Made by a program: the position numbers and the translations under genes. The notes below the pieces were generated by a model. It had not been told where the DNA came from, searched no databases, and worked only from the letters and a program-made list of their open reading frames with translations. From a bacterium (GTDB lineage Bacteria; Patescibacteriota; Minisyncoccia; Phycocordibacterales; UBA918): DNA of 64,000 nucleotides. Below are positions 11,789 through 63,456 of the stretch, one piece after another; position 1 is the stretch's first letter, and each line of letters begins with the position of its first letter. The DNA lies in contig JAYSUD010000008.1 of NCBI GenBank assembly GCA_043719295.1, forward strand, positions 8,216 through 72,215, in the 5' to 3' direction.

Positions 11789-12116
11789 TCCGGTGTAGCT
11801 CAGCGGTAGAGCAATCGACTGTAACATTGAACAATGTTCAAAATAGCAGCCTTATCGAGAAATTGATATTGCAAACAAGGTGAATTGCTGGAACCCCCAC
11901 GACACAAGTCAGGGCAATCAGCAGCCAAGCTTTTGGAGAAATCCAATTGAAGGTCCAGAGACTATCCCTTCGGGGAGTAGAATGCTCACAAATGCATTCG
12001 AAGCGCCTTGCACCGTCAGTGTAGTAATACAACCGGTGATGATATAGTCCACGCCATACAGTAACGTATGAATAAGTGTAATCGATTGGTCGCAGGTTCG
12101 AATCCTGCCGCCGGAG
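11789..12116 (+). tRNA. tRNA-Asn (anticodon GUU) interrupted by a group I intron in the anticodon loop. No CCA is encoded.
   Basis: Exons tccggtgtagctcagcggtagagcaatcgactgt + taatcgattggtcgcaggttcgaatcctgccgccggag fold into a 72-nt cloverleaf. Acceptor TCCGGTG/CGCCGGA, U8, T-loop TTCGAAT, G73, and a 5-nt variable loop that excludes Tyr. Confidence 0.75.
11823..12078 (+). ncRNA. Group I self-splicing intron (~256 nt) within tRNA-Asn.
   Basis: CCAAGCTTTTGG (P5-like), GTCCAGAGACTA (J6/7-P7) and ATATAGTCC (P7'/J8-7) match the group I consensus. The intron ends in G. Boundaries are good to about 2 nt. Confidence 0.7.
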
Positions 12117-12132
12117 CTTTAGAATTTAGAGA

Positions 12133-12162: not shown

Positions 12163-12184
12163 AGCTCCGGCGGCAGGATTCGAA
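12163..12184 (+). repeat. Perfect inverted copy (22 nt) of the tRNA-Asn 3' end.
   Basis: agctccggcggcaggattcgaa is the exact reverse complement of the tRNA 3' end ttcgaatcctgccgccggagct. Together with the tRNA it makes a ~35-bp inverted repeat enclosing the terminator. Confidence 0.85.
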
Positions 12185-12238
12185 GACCTTGCCTGATATC
12201 TTTTTGAGGTACGAAATAAAATAGTGACAAGGTGTACT

Positions 12239-12268
12239 GGTCGTGTAACGACCGAAATTCCTGCCGCC
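12239..12268 (+). repeat. tRNA-flanking module: hairpin with TGTAA loop, then GAAATTCC, then a direct copy of the tRNA 3' strand.
   Basis: ggtcgtgtaacgacc-gaaattcc-tgccgcc. The tail is complementary to 12170-12182. Homologous modules at 58386-58413, 62436-62462 and 63420-63456. Confidence 0.6.
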
Positions 12269-13819: not shown

Positions 13820-14065
13820 TTACTTCGAAACTTTTTTTATTGGGTAGTCTTTATTTTCATGTGCAGCTTCCATATGCTCAATAGCAGCATCAATGTGCAC
13901 CTCAGCGGCTTCCTTGTGCACTTCAGCTGCTTCAATATGTATATCAGAAACAGTTTTGTGAGCTCCTTCCACTTTTCTCTCTACTTTCTCAGCTTTTATC
14001 TCAGAGACTTCAACGTCTTTATTATCAATTACTGGGCAAGACTGTTTTTTTGTATCGTTTGTCAT
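13820..14065 (-). CDS. Small His/Glu-rich protein with EAAEVH repeats.
   Basis: 81 aa: HIEAAEVHKEAAEVHIDAAIEHMEAAHE. Possible metal-binding function. Confidence 0.35.
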   Translation of the reverse strand: MTNDTKKQSCPVIDNKDVEVSEIKAEKVERKVEGAHKTVSDIHIEAAEVHKEAAEVHIDAAIEHMEAAHENKDYPIKKVSK

Positions 14066-14254
14066 AGTATTTGTTTAAAACTTTCATTAAAAATGTCCCT
14101 CCTGGGCTTGTTAGCACAAAAAACTATTTCCTATATGAGGGATAGTATCAAGCCGAACAGAACGAGGATCTATTACATACAAGAAAAACTACTATAAAAA
14201 TCTATGTTTACATCTCAGATTCGCATAAATATAAAATCTTTAATGTTTTTACAC

Positions 14255-15227: not shown

Positions 15228-15758
15228 TCAGGCCGCTTCAAGAAGACTGCCTTCGGCGGACGAGCCCAGCAAGGTCGCCATTGTCGCTTTGAGACCCTTA
15301 GATATAAAGATGCGATACGGAACCTTTGCTTCGATAGGAACCCGGTTGAGCACGCCGATGAAAAATTCGGCCAATTCCTTTGACTTATCGATATAGGCCG
15401 AGTAGTCCTGATAACGTGCTTTGTACACCTGCGCCAGTTCGTCGTCAAAGACTGACCACGTCTGTGCCGGTGTCATACTTCTGATTTCAGCAGATGTAAG
15501 CCCAGCCGACCGCAAAACAGCATTCACTTGACGTTGCCCAGATCCAACTGGCAGCACGGACTTAGCGTAATTGACACCACCTTTCATGACTGCGACAATC
15601 CAAGCAACTTGGCCCCAGCCACAACCACGAAAGCTGTAACCCTTACCAGTTTTGTCGATGCTTTCAACCCATTGGAATGGGACGAACTCACCAGCTTCAG
15701 CGGCTTGCCGCAAACCTTGGCTTGTGGCGTTCAAATGATTACGATTCCAGCTCATCAT
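15228..15758 (-). CDS. Hypothetical protein in a GC-rich segment, probably foreign.
   Basis: 176 aa with no recognised motif. Local GC is well above the window average. Confidence 0.4.
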   Translation of the reverse strand: MMSWNRNHLNATSQGLRQAAEAGEFVPFQWVESIDKTGKGYSFRGCGWGQVAWIVAVMKGGVNYAKSVLPVGSGQRQVNAVLRSAGLTSAEIRSMTPAQTWSVFDDELAQVYKARYQDYSAYIDKSKELAEFFIGVLNRVPIEAKVPYRIFISKGLKATMATLLGSSAEGSLLEAA

Positions 15759-26607: not shown

Positions 26608-26656
26608 TCGCAAGAGGTTTCCTACTCTTTTGGAAAAAGAGTGAGAACCTGTACAG
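26608..26656 (+). repeat. Nested-hairpin module (same family as 3601-3655 and 28254-28302).
   Basis: tcgcaagAGGTTtcctaCTCTTTTggaAAAAGAGtgagAACCTgtacag. Confidence 0.6.
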
Positions 26657-26708
26657 TTCCTGTAAGGAACAAGAGAGATTAAGAAGTGTGCCGTTTCCAT
26701 AAAACCTG

Positions 26709-27705: not shown

Positions 27706-28191
27706 CTATAAATAACTATCAAAATAGATTGCATGGCAAGTATAGCCACCCACATTCTTCTGCAAATAGTCCTGATGGTAACTTTCAGCAGGCCAAAAAC
27801 GTGTATACGGTTCAAGTGATGTAACAACAGGATTGTCCCAACGTTCACTCTCATTCACTACCTCAATCATCTCCTCTCCAATTTCTTTTTCTTTCTCATC
27901 TTTGTAGAAAATTGCAGAACGATACGAAGTGCCTTTGTCATTTCCCTGTTGATTTAAGGTTGTCGGGTTATGAACCTGGAAAAAGAAATCAAGAATTTGT
28001 TTGTATGAAATTACATTCTCATCATAGGTAACAAGAAGTGCTTCGGCGTGACCTTCATGTGATTCATACGTTGGATTTTCACCTTTGCCACCACTGTATC
28101 CAGCTTCAGTATCAAGAACACCTTTAAGATCACGAAAGAGTTCTTCCAATCCCCAGAAACACCCGCCAGCTATGATTGCTTCTTTTTGCAT
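27706..28191 (-). CDS. msrA: Peptide methionine sulfoxide reductase MsrA.
   Basis: MQKEAIIAGGCFWGLEELF... GCFWG active site. 161 aa. Confidence 0.9.
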   Translation of the reverse strand: MQKEAIIAGGCFWGLEELFRDLKGVLDTEAGYSGGKGENPTYESHEGHAEALLVTYDENVISYKQILDFFFQVHNPTTLNQQGNDKGTSYRSAIFYKDEKEKEIGEEMIEVVNESERWDNPVVTSLEPYTRFWPAESYHQDYLQKNVGGYTCHAIYFDSYL

Positions 28192-28250
28192 AGTTATTAT
28201 TATATTAAGAATTAACTTCTATTCTTTACTATCACCAGATAGCGACTCAG
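28151..28250 (-). repeat. Promoter/5'-CDS unit of msrA (copy 1, functional). Duplicated at 28487-28590 and, diverged, at 28321-28405.
   Basis: ~100 nt (ccccagaaacacccgccagctatgattgcttctttttgcatagttattattatattaagaattaacttctattctttactatca) recur nearly identically 336 nt upstream. Confidence 0.85.
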
Positions 28251-28320
28251 AATCTGTTCAGGTTGTCGCTCTTTTTCCAAAAGAGCAGGCAACCTCTTGC
28301 GAAGTGACATTTAGTCACTT

Positions 28321-28405
28321 CTCACCCCAGAAACATCCCCCTGCAAGTAAGGCTTCTTTTTGCATATAGTCTGATATATAAATTATGTACTTCTATTCTT
28401 ACAGA
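28321..28405 (-). pseudogene. Diverged decoy copy of the msrA start (would encode MQKEALLAGGCFWGEK*).
   Basis: On the minus strand reads ATGCAAAAAGAAGCCTTACTTGCAGGGGGATGTTTCTGGGGTGAGAAGTGA, then a hairpin and the nested-hairpin module. Confidence 0.6.
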
Positions 28406-28486
28406 ATCTGTCCACTCATTGGATTTTTTATTTCACTTCGTTCATAAAAACTCACAATGAGTCTTGCGACAGTCCCCCGGACTGTC

Positions 28487-28590
28487 TCACCCCAGAAACA
28501 CCCGCCAGCTATGATTGCTTCTTTTTGCATAGTTATTATTATATTAAGAATTAACTTCTATTCTTTACTATCAGTAGATAATGACTCAGG
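28487..28590 (-). pseudogene. Near-identical decoy copy of the msrA promoter plus first 14 codons, followed immediately by a hairpin and a U-run terminator.
   Basis: Minus-strand RNA: ...ATGCAAAAAGAAGCAATCATAGCTGGCGGGTGTTTCTGGGGTGAGACAGTCCGGGGGACTGTCGCAAGACTCATTGTGAGTTTTTAT. Confidence 0.7.
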
Positions 28591-45304: not shown

Positions 45305-45470
45305 AAGTACAGTATACCTTACAGGTACTGTCTACTCACTTGTTTTTTATCCACTCCGTTCCCAAAAGACTCAGTGAGTCTTGCGAAATGCTTCAAGCAT
45401 TTCTCACCATGCACCAGTAGCGAACATGTTGCTATGTGTGGATGAATACTCTGAAAGTGATACAGAATAA

Positions 45471-49451: not shown

Positions 49452-50222
49452 CTAGAACACCAACTTGAGACCTCCTTTAAGGATCCACTCATCAGCGTTT
49501 ACTTCGCCGACAAGTGTCTTACCCCAAATATCAACACTCTCTTTCATGCCGAATTCTGGAAAAGAAATCCCCACGTCGTAACTTAGGCTCAAACGCCCTC
49601 GCCCTCGATTTGGACCTCTGTGCTCAAAACTAAGTCCAGGCACAAACATGTCCATACCCCAGCCGTCGTGACAACCCATAACTTGGAAACTTGGGGAATT
49701 TCCAAATACACATAGTGACATCTCTTTTCCGACAAGTCCTGCAGTGGCAAAAAGTGCATCGTTTGGAGTAAGGAGTACTCCACCACGAATACTCAATTCT
49801 GCAGCGGCCGTCTGACTGTATCTGACACCAATAGTGTATTCATCGTAGGTCCAGGAAGTTGAACCTCGGACACTTCCCTTTCGATACGTTCCTTCAGCAC
49901 CCAAAATAAATGGTGAGTTTGGAATCTGCCAAAGCAAAACAGCTGTGCCTCCTGACATAGAGCCACTGTACGAGAGCTTATAGAGCTCCGCACCAAGGCC
50001 GTATTCAGGAAGAGCAAGTGACGTCGTCTGCTCTCCTTGAGTATAATCAGCAGACACCCCAATGCTAAGACCATTCCAGTTTGGCGCATCTTGAGGAAAC
50101 ACTCGCGTCGCGAAGACGCAAGAACCCAAAACTGCCGCAATCAGGAACCCAATCGCCGAAGCAATGAATCCACCTAAATTAGACGGAACTTCCTTCACAC
50201 TGTTTCTACCATCACGCATCAT
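49452..50222 (-). CDS. Putative beta-barrel outer-membrane-like protein (signal peptide; C-terminal aromatic residue).
   Basis: Signal peptide, alternating amphipathic beta-strand pattern, ends ...GGLKLVF (terminal Phe, the OMP assembly signature). Confidence 0.4.
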   Translation of the reverse strand: MMRDGRNSVKEVPSNLGGFIASAIGFLIAAVLGSCVFATRVFPQDAPNWNGLSIGVSADYTQGEQTTSLALPEYGLGAELYKLSYSGSMSGGTAVLLWQIPNSPFILGAEGTYRKGSVRGSTSWTYDEYTIGVRYSQTAAAELSIRGGVLLTPNDALFATAGLVGKEMSLCVFGNSPSFQVMGCHDGWGMDMFVPGLSFEHRGPNRGRGRLSLSYDVGISFPEFGMKESVDIWGKTLVGEVNADEWILKGGLKLVF

Positions 50223-56339: not shown

Positions 56340-57920
56340 CTACAACCCAAAGTTCTTCATTGAATACAAGTCATCGTCATCATCTTTTTTTGCTGGAGTT
56401 GGTTCTTTAGTTTCTGTGACAACAGCTTGTTGTATAGGTTCACTTTGCACAACTTCTTGCATAACGATTACGGGTTCAATTTTTTGTTCGAAGTTTGTAG
56501 CACGTGGTGTTAAGAAATCAGTGCCTTCAAAAGAAGGAGCTTCTGCTTTCGCTTCATTGTTCAATTTTTGCATATTTGCCTTTAGAGCATCTTGCATACC
56601 ATCTCCGTTTTGATCTGTCCCGTTTGAGCTTTGAGGTTGCATAACTGCATTTGAAACAACGGGATACGTTGTATACGAAGTACCGTACGCCTCTTCTTCA
56701 ACAACAGGACGTTCATAGGCTACATACCCACTTGGTGGTACTTTCATATCTTCTCGTTCTTGCATCTGTGCCTGTGTCTCACTTCCTTCTTGGTAACTGG
56801 TATGAACTTCATTTGTATCAAGTGCATGGCGTTGTGTACCATCTCTTGATGGTTCTTGTGTGGCGTTAGAAAGTCCTGCAAATTCTGCATTCTCTGCAAT
56901 CACATTCTCAAGCTCCTCCCTAACTGCTTGCTCTGCCTCAAGTGCGTCTTCAACCCGAATCTCATCTTCTACGCGCTCAGGCTGTGGTTCTACCAACTCA
57001 AGTACGGTAGCATCTGTAATCTTTTCAAGTTCTTGGATATGGGTAGTGCTACTTTCTTCTTCACCTCCCGCCATATGGAAATCAGTAATCTTTCCTTGCG
57101 ACTTCATAATTGCCAACAGTTTCTGAAGGTCTTCATCAGAGAAGTAATCAATAGTGAGCTTTCCCCCAAAGTCAGTTTTAAGAATTTGCACACGCGTGCC
57201 TAATGTATCGGTAAACTCTCGTTCAATCTCAATCAAGACTGCATCCGTGTTTGCCCAGTTCTTCTTTCGCACTTTGTCTGATGCAATTTTTCGAACAATG
57301 CGTTCAACTTCACGTACTGAAAGTTTTTTCAAAAGAATCTCACGGAAGATAACGTCCTGCTCTTCAGGTTTATCATTAAGCATCAACAGCGTCCGCGCGT
57401 GACCCTCGCTAATGTCAGCAGTTCGAAGCGATGAGAGCATATAGTCAGGCAATCCCAAAAGACGAATGGTATTTGAAACGTACTCACGACTTCGTCCTAC
57501 TTTTTTTGCAACAGCTGCATGCGGAAGATTAAACACGTCAGCTAACTGTCGAAACGCAAGAGCTCTGTCAACAGCGTTTAAGTCCTCTCGCTGTAAGTTT
57601 TCAATAATAGCAAGTTCAAGTTTTTCCTGCTCAGAGTTTTCACCCGTTCGGATAATAACAGGGACTTGCTCCATGCCTGCAAGGCGTGATGCACGTAACC
57701 GACGTTCACCAGCGATAAGTTCGTATTGTGTGAAAAAAGCACCGTCTTTGGTTTGTATTTCTTTTCGTGTAACGGTCAGAGGTTGCAGAATCCCGTACAT
57801 GCGGATAGACTCCGACAATTCTTTGAGTTTTGATTCATCAAATTCCCGCCGTGGTTGAAACGGATTGGGAACGATTTTTTCTACCTCCACCCAAAAAATT
57901 GAATCTCCTTGAAAAGCCAT
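56340..57920 (-). CDS. parB: ParB-like partition protein with a long low-complexity acidic C-terminal extension.
   Basis: ParB/Srx box GILQPLTVT...YELIAGERRLRASRLAG...VPVII, HTH region, then ~250 aa of E/Q/T-rich disordered sequence. Confidence 0.7.
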   Translation of the reverse strand: MAFQGDSIFWVEVEKIVPNPFQPRREFDESKLKELSESIRMYGILQPLTVTRKEIQTKDGAFFTQYELIAGERRLRASRLAGMEQVPVIIRTGENSEQEKLELAIIENLQREDLNAVDRALAFRQLADVFNLPHAAVAKKVGRSREYVSNTIRLLGLPDYMLSSLRTADISEGHARTLLMLNDKPEEQDVIFREILLKKLSVREVERIVRKIASDKVRKKNWANTDAVLIEIEREFTDTLGTRVQILKTDFGGKLTIDYFSDEDLQKLLAIMKSQGKITDFHMAGGEEESSTTHIQELEKITDATVLELVEPQPERVEDEIRVEDALEAEQAVREELENVIAENAEFAGLSNATQEPSRDGTQRHALDTNEVHTSYQEGSETQAQMQEREDMKVPPSGYVAYERPVVEEEAYGTSYTTYPVVSNAVMQPQSSNGTDQNGDGMQDALKANMQKLNNEAKAEAPSFEGTDFLTPRATNFEQKIEPVIVMQEVVQSEPIQQAVVTETKEPTPAKKDDDDDLYSMKNFGL

Positions 57921-58054
57921 AACAAAAACACATAACCACGAAAAAATGCCTCTCATTTCTTCGCTTTTCCTCCTAACTCCCCCATTCTACCACAGCAAAG
58001 TTTTTGAGTGGCTGTTTATAACTTTCAAAGAATCTGTTACACTTGCCCTTGCCT

Positions 58055-58136
58055 GCCTCGGTGGCGGAATTGGTATACGCGCACGACTCAAAATCGTGTG
58101 CCGCAAGGCTTGAGGGTTCGACCCCCTCCCGAGGCA
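58055..58136 (+). tRNA. tRNA-Leu (anticodon CAA), type II with a long variable arm; no CCA.
   Basis: gcctcggtggcggaattggtatacgcgcacgactcaaaatcgtgtgccgcaaggcttgagggttcgaccccctcccgaggca. Acceptor GCCTCGG/CCGAGGC, loop CUCAAAA. Confidence 0.75.
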
Positions 58137-58145
58137 CAATAAAAC

Positions 58146-58167
58146 AGCACCTTTTGGTGCTTTTTTA
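58146..58167 (+). terminator. Rho-independent terminator after tRNA-Leu.
   Basis: agcaccttttggtgcttttttat. Confidence 0.7.
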
Positions 58168-58317
58168 TGTGACGAGGAGAAAGCAAACTTCTTTGCTTTT
58201 GTGAGGGTGTCGAAAGACGGAACGATGCCGAAGGCAAGTGAGCCGGGGTCGCAGAAATTTCTGAAAGAAATTATCTGTGACCGCCCACCGAGGAACAAGT
58301 GACTGAATGTCACTTGT

Positions 58318-58413
58318 GGGAGGGGGTCGAAAAGGTTGCCTGATATTTTGTGACGTAAGGAAACAAAATATCGATAACCTGTACTGAACATGTAATGTTC
58401 GATTCCCCTCGAC
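58318..58413 (+). repeat. tRNA-Leu flanking modules: inverted copy of the tRNA T-loop/acceptor (58318-58331) followed by the TGTAA-hairpin module (58386-58413).
   Basis: gggagggggtcgaa = rc of ttcgaccccctccc. Then gaacatgtaatgttc-gattcc-cctcgac. Confidence 0.55.
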
Positions 58414-58500
58414 TTTCCCCAATTTTTCTATAAGCTACTGTACAGACCAGTCCTTTGTAAGCAGGAGCTGGTTTCCTCACAATTTAACCGAGCACTGGAG

Positions 58501-59256
58501 GTGCAAATGCCCATATTCCTTACTTCCAAAGACCTAGGTTGTGGTATCTGGCTCGCATTGGACATGGACAACTTCGAGGAAGCTCTCGACTTGACCGGTC
58601 AAACCGGCGAATATATTGATGGTGTCAAAGTTCATGGCATCGTTGAAGACGCTATGAAGGAAAAACTTGGCAAGCTCCGTAAAGTTGGTGCAAAAAAAAT
58701 TTGGCTCGACCGAAAGGTCGATGACACCCCAGGGACCGTCAAGATCGTTTCGAGGAACGCTCACGACTGTGGTGCCGACAGAATGACCGTCATGGCATCT
58801 GCTGGCATTGAGGCAATGATGACTGCCATCAATCATGGTCCTGCCGAAATTGTCGCCGTCACCGACCTCACTTCACTTTCAAAAGCCGAAATTGGAATGT
58901 CGCGTGGAATGCCGGCCGACGCCTCTGTGCTTCAAAAAGCACAATGGGCAAAGCTTGCTGGAGTTAAGCTTGTTGTCTGTTCAGTTGAGGAGGTGGCTGA
59001 ACTGGACAAACGCCGAGGATATTCCAGACTGGCAGATTGCCATCTGGAACTGAATGGAATGAAGTTTACAGTCCCAGGCAGCAGAACCATCACGGACATT
59101 CTGAAAGGACAAGTGCGGAGCAACACCGCAATGGCGACCCTTGCTGCCGGAGCCGATGAACTGGTGCTCGGGAGCGAAGTTTGGGAAGCCAGACAGCCCT
59201 TCGATGCACTTCAACAGGTCTATCATTCAATTCTAGAATACATGAACAAACAATAA
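58501..59256 (+). CDS. Orotidine 5'-phosphate decarboxylase-family (PyrF/KGPDC-like) protein, in a GC-rich island.
   Basis: IWLALDMDNFEEALDLTGQ...KIWLDRKVDDTPGTV resembles the OMPDC-family (ALD..., D-K-D-P-T) motifs. GC ~55% versus ~40% for the window. Confidence 0.45.
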   Translation: MQMPIFLTSKDLGCGIWLALDMDNFEEALDLTGQTGEYIDGVKVHGIVEDAMKEKLGKLRKVGAKKIWLDRKVDDTPGTVKIVSRNAHDCGADRMTVMASAGIEAMMTAINHGPAEIVAVTDLTSLSKAEIGMSRGMPADASVLQKAQWAKLAGVKLVVCSVEEVAELDKRRGYSRLADCHLELNGMKFTVPGSRTITDILKGQVRSNTAMATLAAGADELVLGSEVWEARQPFDALQQVYHSILEYMNKQ

Positions 59257-59487
59257 AACCCTCCGGCGAGATTCTGCATACATTCACGAAGCTGAATGTA
59301 TCCAAAATCTCGCCGGACACCTCAAACCGTCGGTTTTGGAAAGTATACACATCGTATATTTCCCCAAGCCGACGGTTTTTTCTTTTCTTGTATTTTTTAT
59401 ATTTTAGAGTAGTCTACAATTCATCACCAAACCGTCACACATGTGACTTTATCGGGAGGATTGTACCTTGAGAGCACTTACAGAAGT

Positions 59488-60160
59488 TATGGCTGAGGCT
59501 CATACCGTCGCTGAAGTTTTTACCGACAAACACTTTATCTACACGGGAGGAGATCACGGCGATGGATACGTGAACTACAGACCACTTGGGGCTGTGGGGT
59601 CTGAGTTCCTTCTTCGCGAGGTATGTGTGCATCTGGTCCGCAATATGCTCATTGGAGTTCCTGTTGAGAAATACAGAAACATTGTCATCATTGGCCCAGA
59701 AACGATGGGTGCAAAAATGGTAAAGCAAATCGGTTGCACCTTGGAAGATGAGCTTCCTTATATCATCCATACGAGGACTTTTGTCAAAGACCCCAACAAG
59801 GCAAAAAGCTTTTTGTGGAATGCTGATCCGGAAAAACTGCTCGATGAAGATTCTCTGGTTTTGTGGATTGACGATCTCCTGAACGGAGGGACGACGTTTG
59901 AAGCAACCGCACCGATGATTCACTACTACGATGCACAGGTGTACGGCATCGGGGTTATCGGCGACCGCAGTGGACTTACTCCAGAAAAGCTTAGCGTTCG
60001 CCGTATCACATCGCTTGAGCAGTTTAGCCTCAAGAGATACCCTGAGGCAGAGTGCCCTTCTTGCCGCGACCACATCCCAATTGTTGATAATCTTGGACAC
60101 GGTGCGAAGTTCAAGGCAACTCATCCAAGCTATCAAGGTGGATTCATTCCTGCCAGATAG
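59488..60160 (+). CDS. Type I phosphoribosyltransferase (orotate PRTase-like), in the GC-rich island.
   Basis: PRPP-binding motif LVLWIDDLLNGGTTF. Start may be TTG at 59468. Confidence 0.5.
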
Positions 60161-60239
60161 CATGCATGACCTTCAACGGGCGGACTATACACTCTCAGAT
60201 GAGAATACATTGTCAGCCCGTTGGAGAAATACGACGCCG

Positions 60240-60285
60240 TTACCCTTCATCGGATACGGCGTTTCTTTTTTTCTAAAATTCAACA
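60240..60285 (+). terminator. Rho-independent terminator closing the GC-rich island.
   Basis: acgacgccgttacccttcatcggatacggcgtttcttttttt. Confidence 0.6.
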
Positions 60286-60525
60286 ACGAGAATTTATAAT
60301 AACAATACCAGTAAGGAAATTAGATTCTTCACGTCATCACGAATAACATGTACATACGCACACAAAATTATTGGATGATGAAGACCTTTACCTCACGTAC
60401 GCCTTTTTGGCGACTGGTTTTGTTTCGGTATATCATCTAACTCCCCTTTTTTTGAAATAACACAACAGAACCAGTCTCTAAGACTGGTTCTGTTCTTTTT
60501 GGTTCTTTAAATAAGGAGGAAGCCT

Positions 60526-60828
60526 ATGTCCGAAATTTGTTTTGTTCCTGTAATTGGGTATGTTCCAAGTATGCATCCAAATCAACAACTTGGATATGAA
60601 ATCTGGGTAAGTAATCCACAACGTGCAGTACCGTACATCTTCAAAACAACACTGCAAGAATATAACAAACAACAAGGTGGTAATCTGTTTGGACAAGAGT
60701 GCATGATATATGGTTTATATCTTCATGTATCTCCCTTAGCTTTGTACGCAACAAAGGAACAGGCCTTGTTTGCACTCGGGGTTTTTATTCCTACAAAAAC
60801 AATGTACGATCTTGATGCCGCGCGTTAG
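60526..60828 (+). CDS. Hypothetical small protein.
   Basis: 100 aa, no motif. Preceded by a hairpin/T-run at 60465-60500. Confidence 0.35.
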   Translation: MSEICFVPVIGYVPSMHPNQQLGYEIWVSNPQRAVPYIFKTTLQEYNKQQGGNLFGQECMIYGLYLHVSPLALYATKEQALFALGVFIPTKTMYDLDAAR

Positions 60829-62075: not shown

Positions 62076-62462
62076 CTCGAGTAAAGAAAAAACATAATGC
62101 TGAAGCATTATGTTTTTTCTTTAGAACCTGACCTGCGTCAGGTTCGTGCTCGAGCGAGAGACGGAGACATGTCGCCTGCGACAGTCGAGTCGGGGTCGAG
62201 AGTACTTATGATTTGAGGAGGTACGACGATAATCATTAGTAACTCGTGACCGCAGTGAGCCCACGAGGCATAGCTTTTTGAAAAAATGCGTAGTGCGATT
62301 CGAAGCCCGATTGAGATAATTTTGGAGCGAAGCGAACAAAATTATCCAATTGGGATACTGGTCGTGTAAGCAAAGCTTTCTTTCACTGCATTCCTATTAC
62401 AAATAAAAATGAACTTTTCTTTGAATACTCATTTGTGAAAGTAACGACCGAAATTCCTCGTT
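62076..62462 (+). repeat. Highly structured tRNA-Trp 3' flank: nested stems pairing with the tRNA 3' end, then the TGTAA-hairpin/GAAATTCC module.
   Basis: gctcgctcgag (62071-81) pairs ctcgagcgag (62151-60). gagcccacgagg (62257-68) is the exact complement of the tRNA 3' cctcgtgggctc. Module gtgaaagtaacgaccgaaattcctcg at 62436-62462. Confidence 0.55.
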
Positions 62463-63295: not shown

Positions 63296-63456
63296 GGCGT
63301 CGGGAGGGATTTGCACCACAAGAGTATTTCCATTTTTATATTCCCTTCAGTCATTAAAAATTAAGTCAAGACCTTTTGAGATAGATTTGACTGAAAGGAA
63401 AATATACCCAAAAGGTGTACCGGTCATGTAATGACCAAAATTCCCTCCCGGCGCAC
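63296..63456 (+). repeat. tRNA-Tyr flanking modules: inverted 3'-end copy (63296-63313), a 27-nt block shared with 26546-26572, and the TGTAA-hairpin module ending in a direct copy of the tRNA 3' strand (63420-63456).
   Basis: ggcgtcgggagggatttg is close to rc of caaatccctcccggcgc. caccacaagagtatttccatttttata is repeated at 26546. ccggtcatgtaatgacc-aaaattcc-ctcccggcgcac. Confidence 0.6.

Follow-up and report, generated by a model that had tools for sequence, protein, structure and literature searches.

Consecutive steps of uridine 5'-monophosphate (UMP) formation are encoded together in UMP synthase and in other fusions of orotidine 5'-monophosphate (OMP) decarboxylase (OMPDC) with orotate phosphoribosyltransferase (OPRT). 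In the OMPDCs that have been studied, the arginine of the GR motif contributes heavily to catalysis. Adjacency to a tRNA gene and nearby partial copies of that gene are features of a second known system, the tRNA-targeted genomic island, and for short structured elements with tRNA-like parts, the systems for comparison are the tRNA-like domain of transfer-messenger RNA (tmRNA), the bacterial Y RNA YrlA and miniature inverted-repeat transposable elements (MITEs). The reduced, host-dependent bacteria of the Candidate Phyla Radiation (CPR), or Patescibacteria, are generally thought to be without nucleotide synthesis.

The present analysis deals with a stretch of 64,000 nucleotides (nt) from a bacterium of the Patescibacteriota (contig JAYSUD010000008.1; hereafter the window), in which a gene of the OMPDC family and a gene for a type I phosphoribosyltransferase (PRTase) lie one behind the other between a tRNA-Leu(CAA) gene and miaA. 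The original prediction had taken the two genes for a GC-rich island acquired horizontally at the tRNA. We favour, with moderate confidence, a different reading, according to which the pair occupies a variable slot as a cassette that is old and open to exchange, and not as a recent tRNA-targeted insertion; the tRNA, the structured modules behind it and the genes are separate from one another; and the two enzymes would constitute a split UMP synthase.

The slot between tRNA-Leu and miaA

The window and the related locus L001 have in common the block TopA–RelA–ParB (minus strand)–tRNA-Leu(CAA)–decarboxylase–PRTase–miaA–tRNA-Trp–pilin–tRNA-Tyr, with decarboxylases that are 50% identical, and the PRTase of L001 sits on the opposite strand. 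The same block was found in the marine contigs L013 and L014, and part of it in L016. All seven homologues in the genome collection (31–35% identity) belong to Patescibacteria. A recent foreign insertion did not withstand these comparisons, the nearest homologues from the same lineage and the synteny kept at 50% identity being an outcome that the original prediction had itself named as contrary to it.

There is gene flux at this slot. Its decarboxylase is of a type with serine in place of the GR arginine (GS type, see below) in the window and in L001–L004, and a canonical pyrF product in L013 and L016, the two being only 20–23% identical where the flanking RelA, ParB and miaA products are 45–76% identical. 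Three unrelated types of PRTase, mutually 20–24% identical, occupy the neighbouring position, namely type A in the window, L002 and L012–L016, type B in L003 and L004, and a pyrE-like protein in L001. The decarboxylase of L003 is 77% identical to that of the window, yet its PRTase is of another type. In L132, the flanks are kept (RelA is 71% identical and the tRNA-Leu near-identical), the slot holds only an S-adenosylmethionine (SAM) methyltransferase, and no remnant of the decarboxylase or the PRTase was detected in it at E ≤ 0.1. In L016, a methyltransferase of the L132 type accompanies pyrF, the type A PRTase and a third cassette gene in the slot. In L017, where the flanks are conserved, a type B PRTase shares the slot with an M23 peptidase and an acyltransferase, and no decarboxylase is present. 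The search for an empty site in relatives, which the original prediction proposed, thus showed the slot of L132 to be devoid of both genes and that of L017, with its PRTase present, of the decarboxylase.

The pair also differs from its surroundings in base composition. The GC content of the decarboxylase gene is 50.0% and that of the PRTase gene 48.3%, compared with a window mean of 40.9%; the value of about 55% originally given for both was too high. The GC content at third codon positions (GC3) is 0.50 and 0.49, respectively, and averages 0.35 (sd 0.08) over the open reading frames (ORFs) of the window. When the window was divided into 64 segments of 1 kb, the two that cover the pair had the highest GC (0.484 and 0.471), followed by segments of 0.460, 0.459 and 0.452. 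Hence, the compositional distinctness that had been predicted stands with respect to GC3, while the margin in overall GC over the next segments is only 1–2 points. The GC3 of the cassette exceeds that of its flanks in the window (0.50 vs 0.35), L002, L003, L013 (0.57–0.68 vs about 0.40) and L016 (0.50–0.62 vs 0.47); it does not do so in L001, where the pair has an ordinary GC3 of 0.25–0.30. Three other ORFs of the window, at 15228–15758 (minus strand), 49793–50140 (minus strand) and 13859–14197 (plus strand), have a GC3 of 0.52–0.53. None of them matched a Pfam family, so that they leave the heterogeneity both unexplained and in place; they are either spurious or further genes of odd composition.

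The non-orthologous combinations of decarboxylase and PRTase, together with the GC3 enrichment in most relatives, make an exchange of the cassette among related lineages likely. Within a Patescibacteria-like lineage, the slot would have been refilled repeatedly with non-orthologous versions of the two genes, or emptied, the replacements coming from related, somewhat GC-richer genomes, and the raised GC3 would be a consequence of this history. Two points tell against such a history: the raised GC3 could stem from causes other than transfer, and no donor lineage was identified.

A purely vertical descent of an ancestral pyrE/pyrF pair, with losses, would account for the synteny that is kept in all relatives carrying the pair, and it would sit well with the ordinary GC3 of the pair in L001 and with the other GC3-high ORFs of the window; the raised GC3 would then be due to local GC-biased repair or to selection that acts, for instance, on the structure of the mRNA, on codon usage or on the amino-acid content. 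We consider it unlikely, as it does not agree with decarboxylases at the same position that have diverged to 20–23% identity between sublineages beside flanks at 45–76%, with the existence of three PRTase types, including a swap between the window or L002 and L003 in spite of decarboxylases that are 77% identical, or with the reversed PRTase of L001.

Several further observations were made at the slot. The type B PRTase of L017 (10785–11420) adjoins miaA and is 36% identical to that of L003; its presence without a decarboxylase may mean that it has a role independent of the decarboxylase, or that the decarboxylase is encoded elsewhere in the L017 genome. The third cassette gene of L013 (7249–7824) and L016 (2589–3179) is similar to a DEDDh 3'-5' exonuclease (PDB 7t2s, E 2e-9). 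The only other ORF between ParB and miaA in the window (60526–60828, 100 amino acids) had no family match and is unrelated to this exonuclease-like gene. The tRNA-Leu(CAA) gene lies on the strand opposite to the decarboxylase in the close relatives L002 (1–36) and L003 (1–75), with decarboxylase identities of 96% and 77%, and in the marine contigs L013 (6154–6238) and L014 (1610–1694), and in L001 it has the same orientation as in the window; it has thus flipped more than once. The ParB homologue of the window (56340–57956, minus strand) extends by about 250 residues at the C-terminus past the ParB domains, and among relatives the protein has 418–538 amino acids.

The tRNA fragments beside the genes

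Two inverted partial copies of the tRNA and a TGTAA module beside tRNA-Leu had formed part of the argument for an island, and their presence was confirmed (58203–58214, 58318–58331 and 58381–58400). The inverted copies correspond to the T-loop and T-stem, with 14 nt exact at 58318–58331 and 12 nt with one mismatch at 58203–58214, and three 12-mer matches were found where 0.1 would be expected by chance. They belong to two modules on the plus strand that trail the tRNA. The first (58196–58296) is a variant without the 20-mer described below and has sequence blocks in common with L001 6285–6411. The 5' strand of this variant, GAGGGTGTCGAA, is the complement of the T-loop and T-stem of the tRNA, and the 3' tail (58279–58296) copies the tRNA 3' end at 15 of 18 positions; the counterpart in L001 ends in an exact 19-nt copy of the 3' end of the L001 tRNA-Leu. 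The second, the TGTAA module proper (58296–58421; fold z −5.2), is made up of a hairpin Pa (58296–58318), the 5' strand of helix P1, GGGAGGGGGTCGAA (58318–58331), a P2/P3 arm, the 20-mer GTACTGAACATGTAATGTTC (58381–58400) and a degenerate tail that resembles a T-loop and an acceptor. A covariance model matched it at 58320–58409 with 81.3 bits (E 3e-19). The closing helix of this copy is maintained by way of two G·U pairs, which favours a constraint at the level of RNA. The 20-mer, of the form GTACTGAAC-N-TGTAA-N-GTTC, has an exact counterpart in L001, in which the small hairpin carries a compensatory change.

Beyond these loci, the 20-mer was found in at least 120 metagenome contigs. It had no match in a collection of viral contigs, which gives no support to an origin from a phage attachment site (attP). 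A tRNA gene lies upstream on the same strand, mostly about 90–150 nt away, in at least 97 of at least 129 instances, and these tRNAs carry at least 31 different anticodons. At least about 45 instances have 20 or more bases, counted from the final GTTC, that are an exact copy of the upstream tRNA from the T-loop to the 3' end. The reverse complement of this tail occurs upstream of the motif (at most two mismatches in 10 nt) in 70 of the 113 instances listed, compared with 8 of 113 in shuffles, and a hairpin with a copy of the 5' acceptor strand of the tRNA often precedes it (20 of the 46 instances listed vs 1 of 46 controls).

RNAalifold gave for 44 instances a three-way junction of 26 pairs, of which 19 show compensatory changes. 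Paired cells amounted to 94.9%, as opposed to 71.6% in shuffles, none of 500 shuffles reached the observed value, and sliding the partner strands of the module lowered the pairing to 34–57%. These numbers carry a selection bias, as the 20-mer and a complementary closing helix had served to pick the instances; the middle helix alone, in which all 13 pairs covary, is free of it.

Further copies in the window were found with the covariance model R1 at 24–61 bits. On the plus strand, one follows an intron-containing tRNA (12173–12264), a truncated one follows tRNA-Trp (62293–62380) and one follows tRNA-Tyr (63363–63445), the last ending in an exact 14-nt copy of the tRNA 3' end and having a covarying P4 stem, GGTCA-TGTAA-TGACC; the remaining matches are at 28385–28477 (minus strand) and, partial, at 26612–26670 (plus strand) and 45314–45382 (minus strand). 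In L001, copies stand behind all three tRNAs. The module is a generic structured element behind most tRNA genes of the source genome and of many others. Since its 5' strand and 3' tail explain the inverted tRNA copies as well as the TGTAA motif, these are uninformative on how the two genes arrived; they are a property of the tRNA genes of the lineage and not a footprint of the gene pair.

These results bear directly on the idea of a recent island that was integrated site-specifically at tRNA-Leu by an integrase, with the tRNA fragments as attachment (att) scars. The cassette does adjoin the tRNA and its fragments, its GC3 is raised, and the corresponding site of L132 is free of it, L017 having the PRTase only. 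However, ORFs and Pfam matches revealed no integrase or recombinase between ParB and miaA, and when the 20-nt tRNA 3' end was sought with up to three mismatches, no copy distal to the genes was found and only the tRNA itself matched, more degenerate copies being confined to the modules ahead of the genes; an att-site model was rejected on account of these two absences. In addition, the fragments, which are located on the upstream side of the genes, are parts of a module that stands behind tRNAs with 31 anticodons and behind three others in the window, the pair occupies an identical position in relatives at 50% protein identity, and its nearest genome homologues are all from Patescibacteria. 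A recent island is thus very improbable. What remains of the predicted horizontal acquisition is a set of genes that are distinct in GC3, patchy in distribution and swapped; the parts that did not stand are the tRNA fragments as traces of integration and the recency of the arrival, and there is neither an integrase nor a distal repeat of the tRNA 3' end.

Two other candidates were considered for the fragments and the module. The opposite orientation of tRNA-Leu in L002, L003, L013 and L014 had prompted the idea of inversion scars or a decayed tRNA-Leu on the opposite strand, which was dismissed as the main explanation because the fragments are 5' strands of a conserved module that recurs behind many tRNAs and tracks the sequence of each local one. 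A resemblance by eye to a hammerhead-like junction or a PyrR-binding site was likewise rejected, since the unpaired strands differ from those expected in both their order and their sequence. The intron-containing tRNA gene mentioned above (11790–12117, plus strand) harbours a group I intron (11828–12071, Rfam 80 bits) and received no ARAGORN call; behind it come a terminator, a 22-nt stretch that is exactly complementary to its 3' end and, last, the module.

The decarboxylase

The original description of the genes as an OMPDC-family gene and a type I PRTase gene with the motif VLWIDDLLNGGTT was upheld by the ORFs and by Pfam. The decarboxylase matches PF00215 (OMPdecase) with an E-value of 5e-23 and 82.6 bits, past the cut-off of 27. 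An AlphaFold model built from ten family members has a predicted local distance difference test (pLDDT) score of 90.9, and its best PDB matches in Foldseek are the OMPDCs 8cso, 1eix and 1dbt from Klebsiella, E. coli and B. subtilis (template modelling (TM) score 0.77–0.84). Among the top 50 fold matches listed, essentially all were deposited as OMPDC or are identical in sequence to one (TM 0.70–0.88). On the basis of the model, the protein is confidently predicted to have the TIM-barrel fold of the OMPDC type.

The catalytic residues Lys41 and Asp68-x-Lys70-x-x-Asp73 are invariant in the family and aligned to the canonical ones, and the LTS motif, PG.R and Gln202 are likewise invariant. An insertion of about 11 residues is located just ahead of VPGSR. 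The arginine of the C-terminal GR motif is replaced by serine in nine of the ten family members, and the canonical relatives P0009 and L005 retain GR. Among 1.84 billion cluster representatives, 255 relatives of the decarboxylase were found at E ≤ 1e-30. The subfamily of the window forms one cluster at 50% clustering (407 bits), followed by the next match at 251 bits. The nearest outgroups, P0029 and P0030, have the insertion and retain GR, and a small number of further branches also show GS (P0031, P0038 and P0071).

The phosphoribosyltransferase

The PRTase, which is identical to the database protein P0010, has TIGR01367 (pyrE_Therm) as its best NCBIfam match, and VLWIDDLLNGGTT is its acidic motif for the binding of 5-phosphoribosyl 1-pyrophosphate (PRPP). 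A profile of 16 family members, compared with the PDB, identified H. pylori HP1257 (4paw, deposited as an orotate PRTase; E 7e-4). The alignment spans both the N-terminal HF.Y.SG.H block and the C-terminal CPxC block, and the two proteins coincide at both landmarks. The structure model (pLDDT 92.7) also has 4paw as its top PDB match, followed by OPRTs and adenine phosphoribosyltransferases (APRTs). The type I PRTase fold is established; a specificity for orotate is inferred, with indirect backing from the canonical pyrF beside the gene in L013 and L016 and from the fusions in related clades.

A probable orotate-to-UMP pathway

Genes of the two families lie side by side in the window, in L001–L004, L012–L014 and L016, and in a Saccharibacteria genome, L005; L015 is cut at the end in question. 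The partners vary: in L013 and L016, type A PRTase of the window type has as its partner a canonical pyrF that exceeds the TIGR01740 cut-off, and in L001 the GS-type decarboxylase is paired with a pyrE-like protein (TIGR00336, 57 bits, cut-off 106.8). Relatives of the decarboxylase are fused to a canonical OPRT in P0037, P0051 and P0065; in P0071, which carries the GS variant, and in P0078, the fused PRTase is of type B. The interchangeable partners and the natural fusions suggest that the decarboxylase consumes the nucleotide product of the PRTase, as in UMP synthase, and the fusions make an orotate-to-OMP-to-UMP pair the best reading. The PRTase would convert orotate and PRPP to OMP and the decarboxylase OMP to UMP, which together would amount to a split UMP synthase. 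Judging from gene association, the pair most likely converts orotate to UMP. No other pyr gene was found within 5 kb on either side of the homologues in seven Patescibacteria genomes, and no account of orotate salvage in these bacteria was found in the literature searched.

A number of findings weigh against this assignment, and they would fit a pair that acts on another substrate, such as a different base or nucleotide that is carboxylated or modified. Neither protein reaches the curated equivalog cut-offs: the PRTase scores 26.2 bits for TIGR01367 (cut-off 150.25) and also stays below the Pfam cut-off, with 22.7 for PF00156 (cut-off 26.3), and the decarboxylase scores 82.9 for the pyrF equivalog TIGR01740 (cut-off 92.3) and 88.5 for NF001273 (cut-off 193). 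The PRTase is far from the characterised OPRTs, its fold match being modest (TM about 0.6, 15% identity), and APRT structures score almost equally, so that orotate is not proven as the substrate. In the decarboxylase, the phosphate-binding arginine of the GR motif is absent and Ser223-Glu224 stands in its place (LVLGSEV), in addition to the insertion of about 11 residues, and in L017 a type B PRTase occupies the slot without a decarboxylase. On the other hand, all remaining catalytic and ligand-binding residues of OMPDC are retained, the pyrF that accompanies type A PRTase in L013 and L016 is canonical and scores above threshold, and the GS-type decarboxylase of L001 is the partner of the pyrE-like protein, albeit at 57 bits and below 106.8. 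Furthermore, P0071 unites a GS-type decarboxylase and a PRTase in one protein, which implies that the variant should still accept a nucleoside 5'-monophosphate. Another substrate is accordingly regarded as improbable, and the conversion of orotate to UMP as the preferred reading.

If the two steps from orotate to UMP have indeed been retained, this would suggest that one specific metabolite is obtained from the host or the community. The slot shows a function that was kept while its genes were swapped, with at least two decarboxylase lineages and at least three PRTase lineages. The serine variant, which is devoid of an arginine of such catalytic weight, offers a natural test case for the mechanism of OMPDC.

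The nature of the module

The gene pair is a variant of known enzymes, and the module is the more novel and surprising item. No relevant match to the module region was found in Rfam at E ≤ 10; at the gathering threshold, only tRNAs and group I introns were returned for the window and nine other loci, and no description of the module was found in the literature searched. We tentatively put it forward as an undescribed, widespread class of elements tied to tRNA genes in Patescibacteria-like genomes, being either a small RNA that mimics the tRNA end or a miniature insertion element with a structured RNA. Such a class may be defined by a length of 90–140 nt, a three-way junction and an invariant core, GUACUGAAC-N-UGUAA-N-GUUC, and its closing helix may consist of the complement and a copy of the last 20 or so nt of whichever tRNA lies upstream.

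Two alternatives are open. A small RNA that is processed like a tRNA would be in keeping with the acceptor-like and T-stem-like helices of the module itself, with its U-G-N-R-A pentaloop and with the terminator of its own that often follows. The other alternative, a miniature insertion element by which the end of the target gene is carried along or duplicated, would be in keeping with a diverged copy (28366–28530, minus strand) that has repeats of the initial 14 codons of an msrA-like gene on both sides, and with arrays of two to four units. The module-like sequence between these repeats suggests that the module inserts together with a duplication of the target end or causes it. The module may be of interest for the processing of tRNAs or as a small mobile element of a new type.

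In the msrA-like region of the window (28190–28530, minus strand), the first 14 codons (MQKEAIIAGGCFWG) and the sequence upstream of them are present twice, with a third degenerate copy. Four identical units with a period of 88 nt follow a tRNA-Arg in L022 (4657–5000, minus strand), and arrays of two units were seen in L099 (6738–7013) and L065 (4435–4691).

Layout of the locus

All features of the locus are on the plus strand. The tRNA-Leu(CAA) gene (58055–58137) does not encode its CCA and was found by ARAGORN and by the Rfam tRNA model (56.4 bits). It is followed by an intrinsic terminator (58146–58167; fold −13.4 kcal/mol, z −4.0), in which a 6-bp GC-rich hairpin (58146–58161) precedes a U-run. 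The terminator scan thus agreed with the terminator originally placed 3' of this tRNA. Past the two modules, the stretch 58414–58506, with a hairpin ACCAG...CTGGT and a ribosome-binding site (RBS) GGAGGT, is conserved in L002, L003 and L012, and the sequence to the left of 58414 is not; from this conservation, it would be the promoter and 5' untranslated region of the decarboxylase gene.

The decarboxylase gene (58507–59256, 249 amino acids), identified from PF00215, the AlphaFold model and alignments, begins with an ATG at 58507, 7 nt past GGAGGT. This start is backed by a database protein that is 96% identical and also has 249 amino acids; the GTG at 58501 is not the true start. The gene is followed by a tandem pair of long hairpins (59262–59385; inverted repeats I1 and I3 at 59262–59317 and 59324–59378) with a fold of −62.9 kcal/mol (z −11.8), the second of which is a terminator with a U-run behind it. 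The gene of the type A PRTase (59468–60160, 230 amino acids), identified from profile and structure matches, has a TTG start behind GGGAGGA. It is likewise followed by a tandem pair (60171–60272; hairpins at 60171–60226 and 60233–60263, inverted repeat I4; −41.7 kcal/mol, z −5.4), and the hairpin at 60233–60263, with its U-run, is a terminator. The strong terminators noted at the outset for both genes are therefore real, with two hairpins each, and because each ORF has its own pair of hairpins, the second with a U-run, the two genes appear to be terminated separately.

Comparison with known systems

The locus has in common with tRNA-targeted genomic islands the adjacency to a tRNA, the nearby partial tRNA copies, the presence or absence of the cassette among relatives and the compositional shift. 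Unlike such islands, it is devoid of an integrase and of a distal direct repeat, and the element from which its partial tRNA copies derive is a generic one of another kind.

With bacterial PyrF (PF00215, TIGR01740; E. coli 1EIX and B. subtilis 1DBT), the decarboxylase shares the fold and the catalytic residues, and it differs in having Ser-Glu in place of the GR arginine, the insertion of about 11 residues and scores below the equivalog cut-offs. The PRTase resembles the Thermus/Helicobacter type of OPRT (TIGR01367; HP1257, 4PAW) in the type I fold, the acidic PRPP motif, an HF.Y.SG.H..Y block, a GDRS motif, the C-terminal CPxC and a decarboxylase as neighbour. In contrast to that type, to which it is about 15% identical, its PRPP loop reads DDLLNGGTT and not D(D/E)V.TTG, and it has additional C-terminal residues (GHG...GGF). 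As in UMP synthase and the decarboxylase–OPRT fusions, consecutive steps are encoded together, and fused members occur in the same clade (P0037, P0051, P0065, P0071 and P0078); unlike in the fusions, the genes of the window are separate, each with its own RBS and terminator.

The module, finally, is similar to tRNA mimics and MITEs in that it reuses the set of acceptor and T-stem strands, has a pentaloop of the U-G-N-R-A type (UGUAA), is short and is repeated. It is set apart from them in that it has no Rfam match, its ends are tailored to the tRNA upstream, and it also adjoins duplicated 5' ends of a protein gene.

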